From: Alphaproteobacteria bacterium
Lineage (GTDB): Bacteria > Pseudomonadota > Alphaproteobacteria > Rickettsiales > UBA3002
Reading direction: 5' to 3'
NCBI GenBank assembly: GCA_037200745.1
Contig: JBBCHK010000008.1
Span: 12,999 to 76,998 of the forward strand
Length of the DNA: 64,000 nucleotides
The notes below the pieces were generated by a model that saw only the letters and a list, made by a program, of their open reading frames with translations, had not been told where the DNA came from and made no database searches. This document shows, in pieces, positions 3,831 to 62,433 of the stretch. The translations under genes were made by a program, and so were the position numbers. Positions within the stretch are counted from its first letter, which is position 1. Each line of letters starts with the position of its first letter.

Positions 3831-3918
3831 TGCGAGGAGCGAAGCGACGAAGCAATCCAGTCCTTGCAACCGGCATCGTCCGGATTGCCACGTCGGCCGA
3901 TGGCCTCCTCGCAATGAC
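3826..3918. repeat. family A palindromic repeat filling the rbfA-truB gap
   Basis: GTCATTGCGAGGAGCGAAGCGACGAAGCAATCCAG ... CCTCCTCGCAATGAC. Its terminal GTCAT contains the truB ATG (3828-3830, minus strand). Confidence 0.85.
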
Positions 3919-3920
3919 GG

Positions 3921-7535: not shown

Positions 7536-7630
7536 GTCATTGCGAGCGACCATCGGGAGCGCGGCAATCCAGTCGATGCCACCGGCAAGAACTGGATTGC
7601 CGCGTCGCGCGATGCGCTCCTCGCAATGAC
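7536..7630. repeat. family A palindromic repeat (nusA-ylxR gap)
   Basis: GTCATTGCGAGCGACC..GCGGCAATCCAG ... CTGGATTGCCGCG..CTCCTCGCAATGAC. Confidence 0.85.
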
Positions 7631-7635
7631 GCTGC

Positions 7636-16873: not shown

Positions 16874-17904
16874 TCGCGCTCGGTGCCCGGTTCGGAATAT
16901 TGCTTCTTCTTCTCTTCCCACTCGTCGTAGGCCTTGATGATCTTGGCGGCGAGCGGGTGGCGGACCACGTCGCCGTCCGAGAAGCGCACCGTCTCGATGC
17001 CGGGAATGTGCTCGATCTTCGGAATGCAGTCGGCGAGGCCGGACTTCACGTCCTTCGGCAAATCGACCTGCGACAGGTCGCCCGTCACCACGATGCGCGA
17101 GCGCTCGCCCATGCGGGTGAGGAACATTTTCATCTGCGTGCGCGTGGTGTTCTGCGCCTCGTCCAATATGACGAAGGCGTTGCTGAAGGTGCGGCCGCGC
17201 ATGAAGGCGAGCGGCGCCAATTCAATTTCACCGTTCTCGATGGCGGCGTTGACCTTCTCCGCCGGCATCATGTCGAACAGCGCGTCGTAGAGCGGGCGCA
17301 TGTAGGGATCGATCTTCTCCTTCATGTCGCCGGGCAGGAAGCCGAGCCGCTCGCCCGCCTCCACCGCCGGCCGCGACAGGATGATGCGCTCGACCTTCTT
17401 GTTGAGGAAATAATAGACCGCCATCGCCACCGCGACGTAGGTCTTGCCGGTGCCGGCGGGCCCGAGCGCGAAGACCATGTCGTTCTCGTACAGCGCGCGC
17501 ACGTAGTTGGCCTGCACGTGCGTGTAGGGCACGACGGTCTTCTTCATCGTGCGGATGTAGACGTCGCTCTGCACGCCTTCGCGCTCGGTGGTCTTCGATT
17601 TCTTGTCGACGACCGGCGGCATCAGGCGGATGGCGGCGTCCACCTCCGCCTCGCCGACGGCCCCGCCGTTCTCGATCTGGCGGTAGAGCGTCTGCATCAG
17701 CCGCTCGGTGGCGTCGATGTCGCGCTTGTGGCCGGTGATCGAGACCATGTTGCCGCGCGCGATGAGCGCGACGTTCAGCCGCTCCTCGATGCGCTCGAGA
17801 TGCGCGTCGTGGTCGCCGTAAAGCATCGGCAGATACTGGTTGTGTTCGAAAAAGACGTTGACCGTCTGGTGGTCGCGCGCGGCGCGCTTATCGGGCTTGG
17901 CCAT
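16870..17904 (-). CDS. phoH: PhoH-like ATPase (YbeZ)
   Basis: Intact 344 aa. Walker [10 protein letters not shown], then [19 protein letters not shown] and FVILDEAQN. Confidence 0.95.
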
Positions 17905-18069
17905 TCATTCTCCTGATGCCTCAAGCTAGGCCCCGCCAACGGCGACGTCAACCAGCCGATGGCGGCCGTCCCCTGCATTCTCGGCAAGGGCGGATTGCGT
18001 GCGGCCAATAATTATCTTTACCGTCCCGCCGGGTTGCCCTACGTTCCTGCGCAGACGGTTTCGGCCGTC

Positions 18070-18237
18070 CGGGGCGTAGAAACCCCCTGCTATAGCGGCT
18101 TTCAGTGTAGCCGTTACTCACACTCCTCGACCGCAGGGTCGGGGAGGCGTTAGCGTATGTCCAAGGCGCAAGCCTAAAGGCTGACGCGAACCTTCTATAG
18201 CAGGTTTTTCTAACTCCCCGATCACCATCGGAGGAGT
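18070..18237 (+). promoter_or_regulatory. structured 5' leader RNA (candidate riboswitch/attenuator), copy 1
   Basis: Nested helices read by eye. P1 is 18086-18095/18195-18204. Hairpins at 18105-18123 and 18125-18144, then 18147-18154/18180-18187 capped by a GCAA hairpin at 18164-18175. U-run after P1. SD-sequestering hairpin at 18213-18237. A covarying second copy lies at 51013-51180. Confidence 0.6.
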
Positions 18238-18239
18238 CG

Positions 18240-19295
18240 GTGCGCGTTCTGTATATCGGCAATGCGGGGCAGAAATCTCCCGGCGCGAACTATTATTCCT
18301 CGCACCGGCGCGCCGTGAACGGCCTGCGGCGCAGCGGCCACGACGTCCTGCATTTCAGCGACCGCGACCGGCTGCGGACGAAGCGGCCGCTGCCTTTCGC
18401 CGCGCGGCGCGTCAACGTCGAGCTGCTGCGCATCGCGCGCGGCTTCCAGCCCGAAGCGCTCATCCTGTGCTGCGCCGAGATCGTCACCAACGAAACGCTG
18501 GAAAAACTCAAGGCCGCCAGCCCGGGCGTGCGTATCGCGCAAATCAACATCGACTGCATCTTCAACCCGGACAACGCCCGCCGCTTTCGCGCGCGGCGCG
18601 GCTATGTCGACATGCAGTTCTTCACCACCGCCGGCGACGCGCTCGCGGCCTTCGCCACGGCGGGCGCACCCTGCTATTTCATCCCGCAGCTGGTCGATTC
18701 CTCCATCGACACCGGCCGCGCCTTCGCGCTCGACGCCCCCGCTTACGACCTCACCTGCACCATGACCGTCGATCCGCGCTTCGAGGACAGCGCGTGGCGG
18801 CAGTCGCTGGCGCTCGGGCTGAAGCGCAACCTGCCGGAGCTCGCCACCTGCTATCGCGGCTTCGGCGGCCATCCGCCGCTGTACGGCCGCGCCTATATCG
18901 AGGCCTACGGCAACTCGGCGATGGCGCTCAATCTTAGCCAGACGATGTCCGGCAACGTCGCATCCACCGAGGCCGAGCGTTATCTCTATTCCTCCAACCG
19001 CATCGCCCACATCATCGGCAACGGCGCGCTTGCCTTCATTCCCGACGAGTTCGGCCTCGACGAGCTTTACCCGGACGCCGTCTTCTTCTCCGGCCTCGAC
19101 GAGCTGACCGACAAGGTCCGTTTCTACTGGGACCGTCCCGAGGAGCGGCAGGCCATCGCGTGGCTCAGCTGGCGCCGGGCGCATGCAGAGTTCGACAGCG
19201 CGCGCATCATGCGCTACGTCCTCGACCGGATTTTCGAACGGCCCCCCGGCCGCGATTACGCGTGGCCGGTGCGGCCGGTCTTCGCCGCCGCTTAA
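18240..19295 (+). CDS. CgeB-like glycosyltransferase-family protein, paralog 1 (351 aa)
   Basis: Intact ORF with GTG start after GGAGGAG. The C-terminal segment NRIAHIIGNGALAFIPDEFGLDELY..VFFSGLDELTDKVRFYWDRPEERQAIAW resembles the Glyco_trans_1_2/CgeB C-terminal domain. The assignment is from memory of the family only. Confidence 0.6.
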   Translation: MRVLYIGNAGQKSPGANYYSSHRRAVNGLRRSGHDVLHFSDRDRLRTKRPLPFAARRVNVELLRIARGFQPEALILCCAEIVTNETLEKLKAASPGVRIAQINIDCIFNPDNARRFRARRGYVDMQFFTTAGDALAAFATAGAPCYFIPQLVDSSIDTGRAFALDAPAYDLTCTMTVDPRFEDSAWRQSLALGLKRNLPELATCYRGFGGHPPLYGRAYIEAYGNSAMALNLSQTMSGNVASTEAERYLYSSNRIAHIIGNGALAFIPDEFGLDELYPDAVFFSGLDELTDKVRFYWDRPEERQAIAWLSWRRAHAEFDSARIMRYVLDRIFERPPGRDYAWPVRPVFAAA

Positions 19296-19339: not shown

Positions 19340-20413
19340 ATGAGGATCATCTACGTGGGCAACGCCGCGCTCAACTATGCCGGCAGCCGTTATTACTACC
19401 ACCATCGCCGCTTCGTGAACGGGCTGGTGCGCGGCGGGCACGACGTCTGGTTCTTCTCCGACCGCGACCAGTTCCGCGCCAAGTTCCCGCTCGTGCGCAA
19501 GCGCCGCGCCGTCAACCGCGACCTCGTCGCGCTGGCGAAGAATTACGAGCCGGAGGCGGTGTTCCTCTGCAGCGCCGAGATCATCACCAACGACACGCTG
19601 CGCGAGATCCGGGCCATGTTGCCCGCCCTGCGCATCGCGCAGATCAATGTCGACGCGGTCTATAACGACTATAACCGCCGCCGCTTCCTCGCCCGGCGCG
19701 AGGTGCTCGATGCGCAGTTCTTCAACACCGCCGGCGCGGCGGCGCTTTCGCCCTTCGCCAGCGACCGCGCGCCCTGCTATTTCCTCCCCAACCTCACCGA
19801 TTCGGGCCAGGACACCGGCCGCGCCTTCGACCTCGACAAGCCGCCCTACGACCTCATCTGCACGCAAAGCACCGACCCCAGGGTGCCCAGCGACATGGAG
19901 CGCGAAAAGCTGGCGCTCGACATCGAGCGCGCCCTGCCCGGGCTCGTCACCTGCTACCGCGGCTTCGCCGGGCGGCCGGGGCTGCACGGCCGCGCCTATA
20001 TCAAGGCCACCGGCGAATCGGCGATGGGGCTCAACCTGACGAAGACCGCCTCCGGCGGCGGCGAATCGACGCTGGCGACGCGCTATCTCGGCACCTCCTC
20101 GCGCCTCGCCCACATCATGGGCAACGGCGCGCTGGCGCTGATCCCCGACCAGTTCGGCCTCGAATCGATGTACCGCGACGGCGAGGACGCCGTCTTCTTC
20201 GCCAACGCTGGCGACGCCATCGAGAAGATCGGCTTCTACCGCAGCAACCCGCAGGCGCGCCGGTCGATCGCGCGCAAGGGCTGGGAAAAAGCGCACGGCG
20301 AGTTCGAAGGGCATATCGTCATGCAATACGCCCTCGCCCGGCTGATGGGCCACAAGCTGGCGCGCGACTATATCTGGCCGACGGAAGCCGTCTTCGACGG
20401 CGCGCGGGCATGA
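19340..20413 (+). CDS. CgeB-like glycosyltransferase-family protein, paralog 2 (357 aa)
   Basis: Collinear with the preceding gene; roughly half of aligned residues are identical by eye. Its stop overlaps the tsaB start (ATGA at 20410-20413). Confidence 0.6.
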   Translation: MRIIYVGNAALNYAGSRYYYHHRRFVNGLVRGGHDVWFFSDRDQFRAKFPLVRKRRAVNRDLVALAKNYEPEAVFLCSAEIITNDTLREIRAMLPALRIAQINVDAVYNDYNRRRFLARREVLDAQFFNTAGAAALSPFASDRAPCYFLPNLTDSGQDTGRAFDLDKPPYDLICTQSTDPRVPSDMEREKLALDIERALPGLVTCYRGFAGRPGLHGRAYIKATGESAMGLNLTKTASGGGESTLATRYLGTSSRLAHIMGNGALALIPDQFGLESMYRDGEDAVFFANAGDAIEKIGFYRSNPQARRSIARKGWEKAHGEFEGHIVMQYALARLMGHKLARDYIWPTEAVFDGARA

Positions 20414-21054: not shown

Positions 21055-21066
21055 GAAAAGAGGCTC

Positions 21067-21142
21067 GTCATGCTCGGTCGCGCATCGCGCGATCCGGGCA
21101 TCCATGGGTCCCCGGACGACGCGATGCGTCGCCGAGGATGAC
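21067..21142. repeat. palindromic repeat, family C (GTCATGCTCGG..GCATCGCGC..CCGGGCATCCATGG(A/G)TCCCCGGAC..CGCCGAGGATGAC)
   Basis: Centred on CCATGG. Other copies at 39613-39680 (partial) and 62344-62419. Confidence 0.8.
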
Positions 21143-21196
21143 GGAAAATGAAAATTTCCCATGATGGATTTATAGAGATCGTATTATGGGAGTCTC

Positions 21197-34836: not shown

Positions 34837-34849
34837 CGTTTCTTTTCCT

Positions 34850-34931
34850 GTCATTCCCGCGAAAGCGGGAATCTAGTCCTTCTTTTTAAGTGGCGCTTCG
34901 CGCGCTGGATTCCCGCCTGCGCGGGAATGAC
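34850..34931. repeat. family B repeat (iscU-iscA gap)
   Basis: GTCATTCCCGCGAAAGCGGGAATCTAG ... CTGGATTCCCGCCTGCGCGGGAATGAC. Confidence 0.85.
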
Positions 34932-34939
34932 GAAATCCT

Positions 34940-37847: not shown

Positions 37848-37970
37848 GTCATTGCGAGGAGCCGGAGCCGACGTGGCACCCGAGCGAAGCGAGAGAGGCG
37901 ACCGCAGGGAGCCAATCCAGTCCTTGCGGACGGCTTCTGGATTGCTTCGTCGCGATGCTCTGGCAATGAC
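37848..37970. repeat. family A repeat, long variant
   Basis: Family A termini plus an extra internal segment of about 45 nt that is shared, in inverted orientation, with the copy at 42805-42925. Confidence 0.8.
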
Positions 37971-42796: not shown

Positions 42797-42804
42797 CCGT
42801 CTGC

Positions 42805-42925
42805 GTCATTGCGAGCGGCAGCGAAGCAATCCAGTCCTTTAGGCGGCAAGCTGGATTGGCTCCCTGCGGTCGCCTCTCTCGCTTCGCTCGGGTGCCGCGT
42901 CGCGCGCTGCGCTCCTCGCAATGAC
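42805..42925. repeat. family A repeat, long variant (inverted relative to 37848-37970)
   Basis: GTCATTGCGAGCGGCAGCGAAGCAATCCAG ... GCGCTCCTCGCAATGAC, with the same extra internal segment. Confidence 0.8.
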
Positions 42926-42927
42926 GG

Positions 42928-44049: not shown

Positions 44050-46990
44050 TCATGAAATCCAATGGGTTATTGCAGAAAAAACCGCATATTTATTGCCTGT
44101 CATTCCCGCGAAAGCGGGAATCCAGTCCTTCTTGGTGGCGCTCCGCGCGCTGGATTCCCGCTTGCGCGGGGAAATGACGGCTACTTGGATGGCGCCGGCT
44201 GCGCCAGGGCGGGGCGCCTCTTCCGGGCCGATGAGGCGGGAGGTGCCGGCTTCGTCCGGGTTGTCGGTCCCCTCGGCCGGGGCCGGCGTGTTCGCCCCGT
44301 CGAAGACGTTGAAGATGCCGCGCAGGAAGCCCGGCGTCAGGCCGGAGAGCGGGTTCACCGAAACCCTTGGGATCGCTGTATTTGCCGCGCACGGCGTAGT
44401 TGAAGGCGATCAGCCCCCTCGCCTTTGCCGCCCGCGAGCCTTGCCGATCAGCGGGATCTTGGTGACGATGGAGTTGAAGAAAATAGGCCGGCACCAGCAA
44501 CGCCCTTGAGGTCGAGGTCGGAGCGGGTGGTGTCGACGCGGCCCCTCGACGGTGATGCCGAGCGAGTTGCCGCTGGTATGGCCGTTCTTCACGTCGACGA
44601 TGCCTTTGAGGTGGTGGATGTCCGCCGTCATGTGGTCGAATTCGATGCCGTTGTTGGTGAGCATGTTGACCATGCCGGTGATCGAGGCGATCGACAGGAT
44701 GCGGGCGAGGATCTCCGAGTTGCGCAGCGTGTAGTGGTCGATGCGCAGCTTGCCGTCGAACGGCGCGGGTTGCTTGCGGTCGTCGTAGGTGCCGGTGAGG
44801 TCGAGCGTGCCGTCGAACACGCGGTCGGAGATGTTGAGGGCGCGGAATGAGGTCGCCCGCGTTGCTGCCGGTGATGGAAAGCCGGCGCGGCCCGTTCGCG
44901 TGGTCGATGACGGCGTGCAGCGCGGCGCGCCCGGCGGTCGCCGAGATGTCGGCGCTGTCGCAGCGCGCGCGGCCGCAGGCGAGCGTGCCGTGGACGTCGT
45001 GCAGCGAGCCCGTCTCTGTCAGCGCCAGCTCGTCCAAGGCGAGGGTAGAGCGTGATGGGCGGGGAAATCGGCGAGCAGGGTGGTTGTCGCCGCCCTGCGC
45101 CGCGTAGGAGGTCGAAGCGTCGAGCCGCTTGCCGCTGAGGGCCGACGCTGAAGCCGCCGGCCGTTCACCGCGTAGTCGAGGCCGAAATCGTTGAGGTCGG
45201 GTCACGATGCGCGGCATGTGCAGCGCGGCGAGCTTGCCGTCGGCCCGAGGCTGAGGCTGCCGCCGTCCGCGTGCAGGTCCTGCGCGTCGAGCGAGATGCC
45301 GTAGCTGCCCTTGCCGGCGGGCGGTGACGCTGCCGCTGCCGCGCTCCCGCCGCGCCTTGCTCCACGACAGCCCGGGGATATTCAGCGCGAGGTCTGTGAC
45401 GTCGAACGTCGCGCGCTTGAGCCTGCACGTCGTGGTCGGCGAAGCCCAGCTGCGCGTTGAGGTTGATGCTGCCGTCGCCGATCTGCGGCAGGTCGGGCAG
45501 GCCCAGCGCGGCCGAAGCTCTTGCGCGGCACGCGGCCGGAGAAAATCGGCGATCACGTGGCCGTTCGCCGCTTCGGTGAGGGCCAACGTGCAGGCCGGTG
45601 CCGCCGCTCATCGCCAGCGCGCCGTCGAGCCGGAGGCCCTTGGTGTCGGCGTGGAGGAGCGTGCCGTCGAAGGCGGGAGAGGTCGCCGCGGCCGAACAGG
45701 CCCGGCTGCGCCACCTGTTTGAGCGTGGCGTCGAGGGCGTAGCCGATCGCGTCGAGATGCGCCTTGCCGTCGTCCGGGCGGCCGGAATCGGCCTGGAATT
45801 CGAGCGTCATCTTGGCGTCGATCTGGCCGGTCGCTTTGCTAGGGTCCATCTGCCAGTCGTGCGCGAAAGGGAATGCGGGAAGCTGCAGCATCGTCTCGAC
45901 GTCGGCAGCCGGGCGCGCTGAGGTCGAGCACGGCCTTCATCGGCACGTGCGGGTCGGAAAGGTCGGCATCGAGCACCGCCGAATGGACCGTGCCGCCGGT
46001 GAGCAGGACGCCGGAAGTGGCAGCGATGTGCATCGTGCGCCCGCCGAAATGCGCTGCGCCGTTGACGTGCTTGAGCGGCGGGAAGCCCGGCAGGTAGTTT
46101 GACGGTGAAGTTCTCGGCCTTCATGTCGCCGAGTGAGCGCATTCCTCGCGCAGCTGGTGCGTGGCGAGCTCCTGCGGCGTCACGTCGATCTTCACCGTCG
46201 CGTCGCGGGCGATGCCCTCGGTGATCTTGCTGATGGTCCACAGGCGCGTGTCCTTCACCATCGGCAGCGGCCAGTATTTATAGAGGCGCGTCATGTCGAT
46301 GCGCGGGATGGAGCCCTGCGCCTTGACGGCCCAGCCGGCGTCGCTCCTGCTCGCCGCGCCGGAAAGCGAGACCTCGACGTCCGGGAACTTGAACTGCGCA
46401 TGGTCGAGGGCGATGCTTTTGCCGCCGTCCTCCATGCTCGCCGCGATGTCGCTGGAGACGAAATCGAGCGGCTCGGCGAACCAGTCGGGCAGCGTCAGGC
46501 TGGCCTTTCCGCTGGTCACCGCCGCCTTGCCCGCGCTCGAAATAGCCCGTTGCCGTCGAAGGCGATCTCCAGCGTGCCGCTGACGTTGCCCGCGCCCTTG
46601 CTGCCGTTCGCGGCAGTCGGCGAAGATGCAGACGAGACTGCGTCGGGAACTGCTGGAGCTGCACGGCGAGCAGGTGCTCGCCCGTTCGCCGCCGGCCTCA
46701 GCTGCCCGGCGATGACCGGGCTGCTCAGGCGGGGCGTTGATGCGGCCCATGGCGCCGTCAAAGATGAAGGGCATCGCCAGCGCGCCGGTGATGGCGCCGC
46801 TTGGGCCCCGCGCGATGCGGAAGCCGAACTGCGTGCTGGTGAGCGTGGCGCCCGTCGCGTCGTCCTGCAGCGAGAGCGAGGCGTTGCGCACCTCGACCGC
46901 GCGGAACGGCAGCGCCAGCGGCGCGCTCTTCTTGCCCGTGCCGGCGACGAAGAAGCCGAGGAGCTCGTTCTCAGTCACCTTCGCCGCGCT
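44050..46990 (-). pseudogene. AsmA/YhdP-like (DUF3971-type) large envelope protein. The 5' end is missing and there are many frameshifts
   Basis: Fragments: LLGFFVAGTGKKSAPLALPFRAVEVRNASLSLQDD.., TRLYKYWPLPMVKDTRLWTISKITEG, LRIDHYTLRNSEILARILSIASITGMVNMLTNNGIEFDHMTADIHHLKGIV, and C-terminal NPLSGLTPGFLRGIF. No N-terminal transmembrane region is present. Confidence 0.65.
44099..44178. repeat. family B repeat
   Basis: GTCATTCCCGCGAAAGCGGGAATCCAG ... CTGGATTCCCGCTTGCGCGGGGAAATGAC. It overlaps the 3' end of the AsmA-like reading frame. Confidence 0.85.
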
Positions 46991-50536: not shown

Positions 50537-51009
50537 CTAGCCGCCGTGCTTGGTGCCCGGGTAGGCTGAGTCATCCGGATAGTCCTGGTCTTCGTCCGGA
50601 TGCGCCTGCGGCTTCGGTGTTTTGGGCCGCTCGACGTGCAATCCGCAGTTCTTCTGAATCCCGGCCTGCTCCAGCGCGTCGAACTCGCCCTTGAGCCTGC
50701 CGTACTCGGCGGCCTGGGTCGTGTTCTTGTCGAGGAAGAACAGCGCCGGCCAGAACAGCACCAGCCCGACGCCCATCACGGCTTCGTCGTCACCGGCCAC
50801 TTTGTCGTTCTGCGCGGCCAGCTCGCTGACGCGGGCCGAGACGGTGGCCATCTCCGCGCCGATCTGCTTACAGCTTAGAGTCTGGTACTGAACCGGTGAG
50901 GTATACTGCGCGGGATTTCGGACGAGTGCTGAGCACACCCTGCAACACAGGCGCTAACGAGTGACAGCGAGGCGATTGTCGCCGCTGGCCGCATAAGAGC
51001 TAGTCTCAT
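50537..51009 (-). CDS. putative lipoprotein, 1 frameshift after the signal peptide
   Basis: Own translation from ATG 51009: MRLALMRPAATIASLSLVSACVAGCAQHSSEI (lipobox). It continues in the frame of ORF 50537..50938 (QYTSPVQYQTLSCKQIGAEM..). GGAGA RBS. Confidence 0.6.
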
Positions 51010-51012
51010 GGT

Positions 51013-51180
51013 GATCTCCCCTAGGTTGGTGGCAGGGGAGTTTAGAAAACCCGTATTTCAAGGTTCGCAGTAGCCTTTAAGCCTTGCGGCTCTGGACATA
51101 CGCTAATGCCTCCCCAGCCGTGCTAGGGAGTGCAGTGACGGCTGCACAAAGACCGGAAATACGGGAGGTTCTAACGCCCC
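51013..51180 (-). promoter_or_regulatory. structured 5' leader RNA, copy 2
   Basis: Homologous to 18070-18237. P1 is 51156-51165/51050-51059. Hairpins at 51130-51147 and 51112-51128, then 51102-51109/51067-51074 capped by a GCAA hairpin at 51080-51091. SD-sequestering hairpin at 51016-51040. Confidence 0.6.
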
Positions 51181-51361
51181 AAAGCAGCCTTACGCCGCTT
51201 CGATTGGTAGGCTAGATGGAAAAAGAATAAGGCTCAACTGAAATGTGAGACGGGGCGAGATTGATGCGGCCTGCTGGCCGCCGCCCCTTCGGGGCTGCCT
51301 GCGGCAGTCCAAAACGTCTCCTGACGTTTTGTCGAAGGAGTTCTAATCCCGAACCACCCAA

Positions 51362-51409
51362 TCCGCCATGAAAAAGGGGAGCCAAGTGGCTCCCCTTTTT
51401 CATGGCGGA
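51362..51409. terminator. 48-nt perfect palindrome/bidirectional terminator that includes the tRNA-Ser 3' end
   Basis: TCCGCCATGAAAAAGGGGAGCC AAGT GGCTCCCCTTTTTCATGGCGGA. The core GGGGAGCC/GGCTCCCC is flanked by A and T runs. Confidence 0.6.
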
Positions 51410-51492
51410 CAGGGCGAGATTCGAACTCGCGACACAGTTTCCCGTGTACACACTTTCCAGGCGTGCGCCTTAGACCACTCGGCCACCTGTCC
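51403..51492 (-). tRNA. tRNA-Ser, anticodon GGA
   Basis: Manual fold: acceptor GGACAGG/CCTGTCC, D arm GCC..GGC, anticodon stem CACGC/GTGTG with loop CTGGAAA, long variable arm, T arm GCGAG TTCGAAT CTCGC, discriminator G, encoded CCA. Confidence 0.93.
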
Positions 51493-51649
51493 GCGCTTGA
51501 AGCGCGCCTTATAGCGATGTCGCCCGGGAAATTCCATGGAGATTTTAAGGCCGCGCGCGCGGCCCGGCGTGCGCGTTGATTCGGGCCTGTCGGCCCTCAC
51601 CCCTTCGGGGCTGCCTGCGGCAGTCCAAAACGCCTGCCGGCGTTTTGCG

Positions 51650-51670
51650 AGACCACTCGGCCACCTGTCC
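51650..51670 (-). pseudogene. duplicated 5' fragment (21 nt) of tRNA-Ser
   Basis: AGACCACTCGGCCACCTGTCC is identical to 51472-51492, and is followed by about 52 nt resembling the region upstream of the tRNA. Confidence 0.8.
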
Positions 51671-51791
51671 GCGCCAGGAGCGCGCCTTACAGCGATACCC
51701 ATCCGGAAATTCCATGGGGATTCTGCGGCGGCTTCCCATCCGGGGCCGGGGCTGCTATCGCTGGGGTGGCAAGAACCCTGAAGGAAGTCCC

Positions 51792-53164
<1,373 letters not shown>

Positions 53165-53249
53165 GTCATTGCGAGGAGCGCCTCGCGCGACGAAGCAATC
53201 CAGAGTGCGGCCTAGAAAGCTGGATTGCTCCGCTGCCGCTCGCAATGAC
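53165..53249. repeat. family A repeat between the aminopeptidase gene and marR
   Basis: GTCATTGCGAGGAGCGCCTCGCGCGACGAAGCAATCCAG ... CTGGATTGCTCCGCTGCCGCTCGCAATGAC. Confidence 0.85.
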
Positions 53250-53255
53250 GGCTTG

Positions 53256-61165: not shown

Positions 61166-61188
61166 GGCACGTAACACATCCCCTTCCT

Positions 61189-61278
61189 GTCATTCCCGCG
61201 AAGGCGGGAATCCAGCCCTTCTTCACTACTATTAAGCGGCGCTTCGCGCGTCTGGATTCCCGCCTTCGCGGGAATGAC
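61189..61278. repeat. family B repeat (flhA-flhF gap)
   Basis: GTCATTCCCGCGAAGGCGGGAATCCAG ... CTGGATTCCCGCCTTCGCGGGAATGAC. Confidence 0.85.
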
Positions 61279-61295
61279 AAGGCTGGAGTGCTTGC

Positions 61296-62324: not shown

Positions 62325-62343
62325 GTAAAAATAAAACAATGTC

Positions 62344-62419
62344 GTCATGCTCGGTTGCGCATCGCGCAATCCGGGCATCCATGGATCCCCGGACAAGGCT
62401 CCGCCTTGCCGAGGATGAC
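62344..62419. repeat. family C repeat (flhF-flhG gap)
   Basis: GTCATGCTCGGTTGCGCATCGCGCAATCCGGGCATCCATGGATCCCCGGACAAGGCTCCGCCTTGCCGAGGATGAC. Confidence 0.8.
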
Positions 62420-62433
62420 GAAAAGGAGGAATC

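Follow-up and report, generated by a model that had tools for sequence, protein, structure and literature searches.

We analyzed a stretch of 64,000 nucleotides (the window) of contig JBBCHK010000008.1 from an alphaproteobacterium of the Rickettsiales (UBA3002; assembly GCA_037200745.1), and found that it carries two copies, A and B, of a structured RNA element of ~160 nt. According to the sequence evidence, this element serves as a structured 5′ mRNA leader, with a Shine-Dalgarno (SD) sequence and a start codon directly 3′ of it. We consider it probable that the leader is cis-acting and bistable, with a 3′ module resembling the small RNA sRNA-Xcc1 and a new 5′ competitor module that together would control access to the ribosome-binding site. 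An original prediction, made from the sequence alone, had proposed for copy A a novel riboswitch or attenuator in front of a glycosyltransferase-tsaB operon.

Copies, helices and competing folds

Copy A (core element 18071-18228, forward strand) is placed between phoH and a pair of glycosyltransferase genes, and copy B (51026-51180, minus strand) adjoins a tRNA-Ser gene; each lies on the same strand as the gene 3′ of it. These are exactly the two matches in the window to a covariance model, R1, that was built from 22 sequences, and both are full length (copy A, 113.7 bits, E = 1.4e-24, model positions 1-158; copy B, 96.4 bits, E = 1.8e-20). The copies are ~79% identical (column identity of 18040-18260 on the forward strand aligned with 50990-51210 on the minus strand), and a core of 23 nt was found at exactly two places in the window and in none of the shuffled sequences. 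Copy A (18070-18245) had a folding energy of -80 kcal/mol, corresponding to z = -4.7 relative to dinucleotide shuffles, and copy B had z = -3.8. Compensatory changes distinguish helix P1 of copy A (CCUGCUAUAG/CUAUAGCAGG) from that of copy B (CCCGUAUUUC/GAAAUACGGG). The second copy had been noticed before, and its helices are indeed kept by compensatory changes, but it is on the minus strand and upstream of a different gene, a lipoprotein-like open reading frame (ORF) starting at 51009.

Statistics for the first of two global folds, Fold A, were obtained on the alignment of 100 distinct sequences that resulted from R1. In this fold, the 5′ end of the element (GGGGCGUAGAAAC...) pairs with its 3′ end (...GUUUUUCUAACUCCCC) as a long P0/P1 helix, closing a junction that bears the hairpins S1/S2, P3 and P4/P5. 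Overall, 87.2% of alignment cells were paired and 36 of the 48 pairs had compensatory changes, with numerous G-U pairs; covarying cells numbered 877, versus 256 in shuffles and ~100 in slid controls. This family-wide covariation is very strong and, together with the compensatory second copy, argues, in line with the original prediction, that the structured RNA is functional and not a chance structure.

The following coordinates refer to copy A. Helix P0 joins s0 (GGGG) and the P0 5′ strand (18071-18084) to 18204-18219, and nine of its 13 pairs had compensatory changes (88% paired in the family alignment); alternatively, the GGGG of s0 could form a local hairpin, H5, with CCCC at 18083-18086 (90.7% paired). 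P1 pairs 18086-18095 with 18195-18204, so that the 3′ strands of P1 and P0 run on from each other (18195-18219), and every P1 pair covaried across the family. The U-run 3′ of P1, previously read as a terminator tail, is part of the P0 3′ strand and pairs with AGAAA at 18078-18082, a pairing that also covaries. A terminator scan of the window copies found none, so the attenuator label does not apply to copies A and B, though some low-GC relatives carry a terminator right after the element.

Within the junction, S1 (CGGCU at 18096-18100 with AGCCG at 18109-18113) and S2 (AGUGU at 18104-18108 with ACACU at 18120-18124) are interleaved between 18096 and 18124. This arrangement was present in 75 of 93 distinct members versus a mean of 5.5 (maximum 9) in shuffles, with 38 distinct variants of S1 and 57 of S2. 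Given that the connecting loops are often just 0-2 nt, S1/S2 may be a tight pseudoknot or two alternative hairpins; a simultaneous H-type pseudoknot was considered and not adopted on account of these very short loops. P3 (18123-18146; 85% paired in the family) consists of s1 (CUCCUCGACC, 18123-18132) and s2 (GGUCGGGGAG, 18137-18146) around a GCAG loop. It is followed by P4 and P5 (18147-18187), in which P4 (18147-18154/18180-18187; six to seven of eight pairs covary) carries P5 (AGGC-GCAA-GCCU, 18164-18175; three of four pairs covary) beyond a conserved, asymmetric internal loop of GUAUGUCCA (18155-18163) facing AAAG (18176-18179). Of 94 sequences, 18 have a GNRA tip on P5 and 11 a UNCG tip.

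In Fold B, on which a second model, R2, was built from the 3′ half of the family, s2 pairs with s3 (CUCCCCGAUC, 18214-18223) over 10 bp (95.6-96.7% paired in the family), enclosing P4/P5 and a small hairpin, Hx (18189-18206; AACCU at 18189-18193 with AGGUU at 18202-18206), which excludes P1 and P0. In an alignment fitted to Fold B, 95.6% of cells were paired across 94 distinct members, and all five Hx pairs covaried, with 92% of cells paired. Given that the P1 3′ strand forms the Hx loop without a spacer, Folds A and B are mutually exclusive, and both are conserved.

The segment s3 is an anti-SD segment with three possible partners, namely s0, s2, and the SD. The last of these lies in s4 (AUCGGAGGAGU), which with the start codon covers 18227-18242, with the SD GGAGGAG at 18230-18236 and GTG at 18240-18242; an unpaired, conserved ACCA (18224-18227) comes right after s3. 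The corresponding region of copy B (51007-51021, minus strand) has the SD GGGGAG at 51016-51021 and ATG at 51007-51009, with the s3 motif CUCCCC at 51035-51040, and the minimum-free-energy fold of this copy pairs CUCCCCUG with UAGGGGAG. Constrained folds of copy A gave -92.5 kcal/mol with the SD open (s0:s3), -92.0 kcal/mol with the SD closed (s3:s4), and -84.9 kcal/mol for Fold B, while those of copy B gave -82.1, -85.6, and -73.4 kcal/mol, respectively. According to these energies, copy A is predicted to be nearly isoenergetic between its open and closed states. All helices of the original prediction were found at its coordinates, among them P1, P3 (as 18125-18132/18137-18144), P4 and P5 as well as the hairpin at 18213-18237 that precedes the GTG at 18240, and its four mutually complementary G-rich and C-rich segments are present and allow the SD to be either sequestered or freed; its helix list lacked two conserved helices, S1 and Hx.

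Upstream, the element begins earlier than had been proposed. Copy A has a 5′-terminal hairpin, Pm1 (18054-18069, GACGGU-UUCG-GCCGUC), in its minimum-free-energy fold, copy B has a counterpart read from the sequence (51184-51198, minus strand, GCGGC-GUAAG-GCUGC), and all relatives inspected have a hairpin at this position, immediately 5′ of GGGG. A promoter-like site of copy A (18017-18044, forward strand) comprises a -35 box TTTACC (18017-18022), a 16-nt spacer, and a -10 box CTACGT (18039-18044), with a predicted transcript start near 18051; this site is weak and went unreported by a sigma-70 consensus scan. That of copy B (51210-51237, minus strand), likewise read from the sequence, has TTGAGC (51232-51237), a 16-nt spacer, and CTAGCC (51210-51215). 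Across the family, TANNNT peaked at -35 to -31 and TTG[AC] at -58 to -56 relative to the first G of the element, and some members have a textbook promoter, such as TTGACA, 17 nt, and TATAAT in locus L001. These boxes at fixed offsets agree with the 5′ leader originally proposed and indicate that the element is the 5′ end of the primary transcript, which is predicted to start at the small hairpin before GGGG.

Kinship with sRNA-Xcc1 and breadth of the family

Comparison with Rfam gave no family match by score, but the 3′ half of the element shares the architecture of one family. Region 17900-18400 gave no match on the element at E ≤ 10, to sRNA-Xcc1 or to any other family, and the whole window yielded only one tRNA at the gathering threshold. 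In permissive scans of plasmid and metagenome relatives, sRNA-Xcc1 (RF02221) was the only recurring match and covered the 3′ half alone, with 32.6, 27.4, and 39.0 bits in three of them (L127, L004, and L012) against a gathering threshold of 53. Low-scoring hits to Ms_IGR-4, Methylophilales-1, and Xoo2 fell inside the glycosyltransferase ORF and were dismissed as chance. Structurally, the 3′ half has the outer helix around two hairpins followed by ACC(C/A) that characterizes Xcc1, and P4, P5, and Hx all covary. Shared features are the closing helix GGNCGGGG.../...CCCCGNNC, two hairpins, the first interrupted by an A-rich internal loop and capped with GNRA and the second small, the ACC(A/C), a location upstream of a same-strand mobile-element gene (for the family, in its plasmid and prophage relatives), and weak model matches in both directions. 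Specifically, two E. coli prophage loci contain true Xcc1 sites (79.6 and 64.5 bits with the Rfam model), which R2 ranked first, although weakly (18.8 bits, E = 0.008, and 13.6 bits, E = 0.12), while full-length R1 found no true E. coli Xcc1 locus.

The window family differs from Xcc1 in an additional conserved 5′ module of ~70 nt (s0, the P1 5′ strand, S1/S2, and s1), which makes a competing fold possible, as it rivals the Xcc1 fold strand by strand, with s0 competing for s3, the P1 5′ strand for Hx, and s1 for s2. The internal loop is GYAUGUCCA in the window family and AAUACAAUA in Xcc1. Moreover, true E. coli Xcc1 loci appear to have a promoter directly before s2, whereas the promoter boxes of the window family lie ~100 nt further upstream than the s2 start, suggesting a longer primary transcript than the discrete Xcc1 RNA. 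We conclude from these sequence comparisons that the window family is a distant Xcc1 relative with an Xcc1-like 3′ module and an added 5′ module; this 5′ module and the two-state design are absent from the curated Xcc1 model, an 87-nt fragment. The novelty claimed for the element holds only in part, since its 3′ half shares the Xcc1 architecture, at scores below threshold.

sRNA-Xcc1 is known on integrons, transposons, plasmids, and prophages, with copies described upstream of symE (bioRxiv 10.1101/2025.06.18.660453) and of a gene for an ORF6N protein (PMC7313666). The E. coli prophage sites are upstream of ORF6N and antA/antB genes, near C4 and isrK. In one of these loci, L128 of an E. coli O104:H4 prophage (1463-1650 and 2486-2569), isrK, C4, and sRNA-Xcc1 stand in one control region, isrK and C4 before a Rha-family regulator gene (C4, 1563-1650, partly overlaps the coding sequence starting at 1579) and Xcc1 before the ORF6N gene, which suggests interchangeable roles of the three RNA families. 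In another locus (L129, 2370-2460), a region upstream of a true E. coli Xcc1 has its own promoter, a hairpin, and a terminator with the loop CACCCGAU, which is complementary to the Xcc1 5′ strand GGUCGGGUG; this RNA may be a trans partner in the role of s1. C4 (RF01695, phages P1/P7) and IsrK (RF01394) are RNAs of mobile elements that reside within the leader of an operon under their control and have a closing stem followed by ACC, and the window element resembles them in this arrangement. However, there is no sequence or model match, and the likeness is one of functional analogy only: the Rfam C4 model had no match in the window, while scoring true C4 in L128 at 77.4 bits, and C4 hairpin loops pair with downstream mRNA sites, a complementarity we did not identify in the window element.

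Searches for relatives of the full-length element revealed a very large and barely described family, mostly on mobile DNA, for which we found no other name in the literature. An exact-core scan of species-representative genomes recovered one locus, in a low-GC Rickettsiales metagenome-assembled genome, with the same architecture followed by ATG, and a scan of viral contigs gave no matches. Using blastn of copy A against plasmids, we found Shinella and Paracoccus copies, and blastn with the Paracoccus copy revealed relatives on 279 alphaproteobacterial plasmid records, 229 of them conjugative (by genus, 105 Agrobacterium, 73 Rhizobium, and 18 Bradyrhizobium). Scanning metagenome contigs with a degenerate pattern in which GGGGAG, GCGYAUGUCCA, and AAAGG were fixed, we detected at least 120 loci, of which nearly all listed had a full-length R1 match and so carried the whole element. 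An Afipia copy found by blastn carries GUAUGCAACA in place of the pattern motif. Culturable hosts of family members include Rhizobium etli (plasmid p42d, at 76.5 kb) and Afipia carboxidovorans (pOC167). Members ranged from 0.40 to 0.72 in G+C and came from soil, freshwater, marine, rumen, and human gut sources.

Two relatives had unusual arrangements. Locus L067 has two tandem copies (725-872 and 1253-1401, ~530 nt apart), each before a small ORF, which recalls a Xylella genomic island reported to contain five Xcc1 homologues in tandem (PMC12189769). In a Shinella sumterensis plasmid (L005; NZ_CP132306.1), a group II intron with an ltrA reverse transcriptase gene (1632-2950) sits inside the 5′ part of an element copy, just after GGGGCGUGAGAACCC, and the structured leader appears to be the intron target.

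Downstream genes were heterogeneous, with 32 Pfam families among 83 predicted ORFs. The most common were DUF5818 (seven) and RovC_DNA-bd, the former DUF2285 (six), and the rest were singletons, including autotransporter, Sel1, MORN, LRR, ankyrin, GT2 and other glycosyltransferases, and DUF805; many lipoproteins, small membrane proteins, and pseudopilins had no Pfam match. Plasmid neighbours were typical of conjugative elements (DUF3085, DUF1419, DUF3991-toprim, RES toxin, and acyl-homoserine lactone synthase). Homologues of the window glycosyltransferase in other genomes (45-56% identity) were in other contexts, with upstream gaps of 36-80 nt or a contig end and no model match. We therefore rejected a tie between the element and this glycosyltransferase family, along with its supposed specificity for the glycosyltransferase-tsaB operon; the element is modular and not bound to a pathway.

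Mechanism and alternatives

In the mechanism we favour, the transcript would begin with the small hairpin, followed by the ~160-nt element, the SD, and the start codon. Pairing of the C-rich s3, as anti-SD, with the downstream GGAGGAG or GGGGAG would block translation initiation, whereas the SD would be free once s3 is captured by s0 in Fold A or by s2 in Fold B, so that the leader would act as a toggle on translation in cis and presumably control expression. Of 115 distinct copies, 43 have their start codon 10-29 nt past CUCCCC, preceded by a G-rich SD that can pair with s3. Approximately 13 of the 115, most of them low-GC, carry an intrinsic terminator immediately 3′ of the element, its 5′ arm beginning inside s3, and in such relatives the switch would act on termination instead.

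Several observations weigh against this mechanism. In 34 of the 115 copies (the plasmid type), an extra conserved hairpin GCGGGGGCGYACCGC intervenes and the SD and start codon follow 60-75 nt downstream; in these copies, the GGGG partner beside s3 is not the SD. A terminator immediately 3′ of the element would be consistent with a free-standing small RNA as well, and the sRNA-Xcc1 of Xanthomonas campestris was reported as an 88-nt discrete RNA with a mapped 5′ end (PMC2996969), termed trans-acting in a reference title quoted in PMC12189769. The Fold B alignment was fitted to that fold, and its pair counts favour it for this reason; s2:s3 varies little, so its support comes mainly from conservation and not from covariation. 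Lastly, the invariance of GGGGAG, GCGYAUGUCCA, and AAAGG is circular, since the selecting pattern fixed them, and the family is surely wider.

In an alternative that we find rather doubtful, the element would be mainly a precursor of an Xcc1-type small RNA. The Fold B stem with its ACCA would resemble the acceptor end of a tRNA and be cleaved by RNase P at the 5′ side of s2. Ribosome-binding sites would then be targeted, in cis or in trans, by the released RNA or by a released 5′ piece that carries CUCC. The four bases directly after the s2:s3 helix were ACCA in 46 and ACCN in 66 of 93 sequences, and a stem with an RCCA motif is a known RNase P determinant (PMC12710915). Reference titles list the precursor of the C4 antisense RNA as an RNase P substrate, and in E. 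coli prophages true Xcc1 adjoins C4 and isrK, with antirepressor-like genes downstream. Both the Rfam Xcc1 model and the mapped 88-nt RNA start at the first base of s2 (PMC2996969). Given the stem-ACCA, the C4 precedent, and this 5′ end, processing of Fold B could, by analogy, release an Xcc1-type RNA. However, in many members ACCA is the 5′ arm of the next hairpin (CACCAG...CUGGUG), which may explain its conservation, and Fold B was 7.6-12 kcal/mol less stable than the best fold in both window copies. Such processing would be compatible with the bistable leader if the element had a dual function, like IsrK, which works as a short RNA and also as the leader of an mRNA (PMC4825925).

A classical riboswitch, in which the junction (P1, S1/S2, P3, P4/P5, and the GYAUGUCCA/AAAG loop) would bind a small molecule or ion and shift the equilibrium between Folds A and B, seems distinctly unlikely to us. 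The element does share with translational riboswitches and other SD-sequestering leaders a large, highly conserved, covarying core that is always 5′ of a same-strand gene, variable expression platforms after it (SD-sequestering hairpins, terminators, or the extra hairpin), and mutually exclusive pairings with a putative switching function, s3 having three partners as an anti-SD and P1 excluding Hx. No Rfam riboswitch family matched it. The main argument against this proposal, which was also that of the original prediction, is that downstream genes have no shared metabolic or transport theme and that the element is modular, resulting in an incoherent regulon; furthermore, the glycosyltransferase homologues lack the element, and the strong link of the family to conjugative plasmids and prophage-like regions would be unusual for a riboswitch. 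We give even less credence to an RNA thermometer, or a platform for a global RNA-binding protein such as Hfq, ProQ/FinO, or CsrA, deciding whether the SD hairpin forms. The near-isoenergetic states of copy A speak for it, the heterogeneous, horizontally acquired downstream genes would suit a general signal, and Xcc1 homologues in Xylella have been proposed to behave in an Hfq-linked manner (PMC12189769), but known thermometers are short hairpins whose melting needs no 160-nt covarying multi-helix core, and no Rfam thermometer family matched. A DNA-level repeat without an RNA role, whether of the repetitive extragenic palindromic (REP) or miniature inverted-repeat transposable element (MITE) type or a single-strand DNA promoter or origin, is scarcely credible. 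The two dispersed copies do lie in a window rich in REP-like repeats, the 5′ and 3′ ends are inverted repeats, and the family is associated with plasmids. Nevertheless, these ends covary between copies instead of being conserved, the frequent G-U pairs mean that one strand only folds well, GNRA and UNCG tetraloops occur, target-site duplications were not seen, and the upstream promoter and downstream start codon keep fixed distances and orientation; a REP/MITE-type identity is disfavoured on these grounds.

Two further identities were considered and set aside. The 5′ GGGG and the 3′ CUCCCC..CACCA had prompted a search for a tmRNA or tRNA-like gene, but ARAGORN reported the tRNA-Ser near copy B alone, and the element has no T-arm. 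The flanking inverted repeats had prompted a retron noncoding RNA, but no reverse transcriptase gene is adjacent, and the only one seen, in the Shinella plasmid, belongs to the group II intron.

The bistable leader also invites comparison with hok. In hok mRNA, which is plasmid-borne, long-range pairing between the 5′ and 3′ ends and metastable 5′ hairpins govern access to the ribosome-binding site. The likeness to this type I toxin-antitoxin system lies in the long-range pairing, its bearing on the ribosome-binding site, and the plasmid location; the two have no sequence relation, however, we identified no antisense partner, and the downstream genes are mostly not toxins.

More tentatively, Xcc1 may be the mere 3′ module of a much larger, phylogenetically broad class of bistable leaders that precede mobile and accessory genes. 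In the full-length form, each closing strand of the Xcc1 fold would have its competitor in the 5′ module, and a general signal (a ligand or host protein, or else RNase P processing at the tRNA-like stem-ACCA end) would flip the folds and switch on horizontally acquired genes. If so, the element would represent a regulatory RNA class that is new and has a sensing domain of its own, and not just an Xcc1 homologue. If the bistable leader itself is correctly read, an RNA of ~160 nt, with covariation as strong as that of established riboswitch classes, governs many accessory genes in and beyond the Alphaproteobacteria, among them genes for surface proteins, glycosyltransferases, and regulators of conjugative plasmids and integrative elements. 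The two-fold architecture would offer a concrete mechanism for Xcc1-type RNAs, which have been called trans-acting, virulence-linked small RNAs without known target. Given that the element precedes RovC/DUF2285-like and XRE-type regulator genes on the 229 conjugative plasmids, it may bear on the control of plasmid transfer. A full-length model would recover many copies missed by the current Rfam model, and the size, covariation support, breadth, and mobile-element link of the family should interest RNA biologists.

Genes and repeats around the two copies

The gene 3′ of copy A (18240-19295, forward strand) encodes a glycosyltransferase of 351 aa (Pfam Glyco_trans_1_2) and is followed by a tandem paralogue (19340-20413, also Glyco_trans_1_2), the pair lying between phoH and tsaB and sharing 73-75% DNA identity over stretches of 143-275 nt. 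Homologues elsewhere are found between ftsA and ftsZ or beside a PBP1-type (Transgly/Transpeptidase) gene. The lipoprotein-like gene 3′ of copy B (50537-51009, minus strand) is apparently frame-shifted, as a 44-aa ORF (50875-51009) with the signal LSLVSAC, including the lipobox LVSAC, overlaps a 133-aa ORF in another frame (50537-50938) in which the protein continues; the gene may be a pseudogene or undergo programmed frameshifting, or the break may come from a sequencing error in the metagenome-assembled genome.

Directly upstream of copy B is the tRNA-Ser (GGA) gene (51403-51492, minus strand). Its first 21 nt and ~62 nt upstream are repeated 178 nt away with 82% identity (51472-51554 versus 51650-51732), which may be a leftover of duplication or of integration at the tRNA. 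The window also contains several families of REP-like palindromic intergenic repeats (2675-2765, 34839-34932, 44088-44177, and 61178-61279, with more at 240-299, 3852-3919, 7564-7631, 37869-37954, 42799-42926, and 53165-53250), exemplified by TGTCATTCCCGCGAAAGCGGGAATCCAG and GTCATTGCGAGC...GAAGCAATCCAG, a type of repeat typical of Bradyrhizobium and Rhodopseudomonas relatives. Another dispersed repeat of 92 nt with internal palindromes occurs at 21056-21147 and 62333-62424 (84% identical), with one copy right after tsaB.

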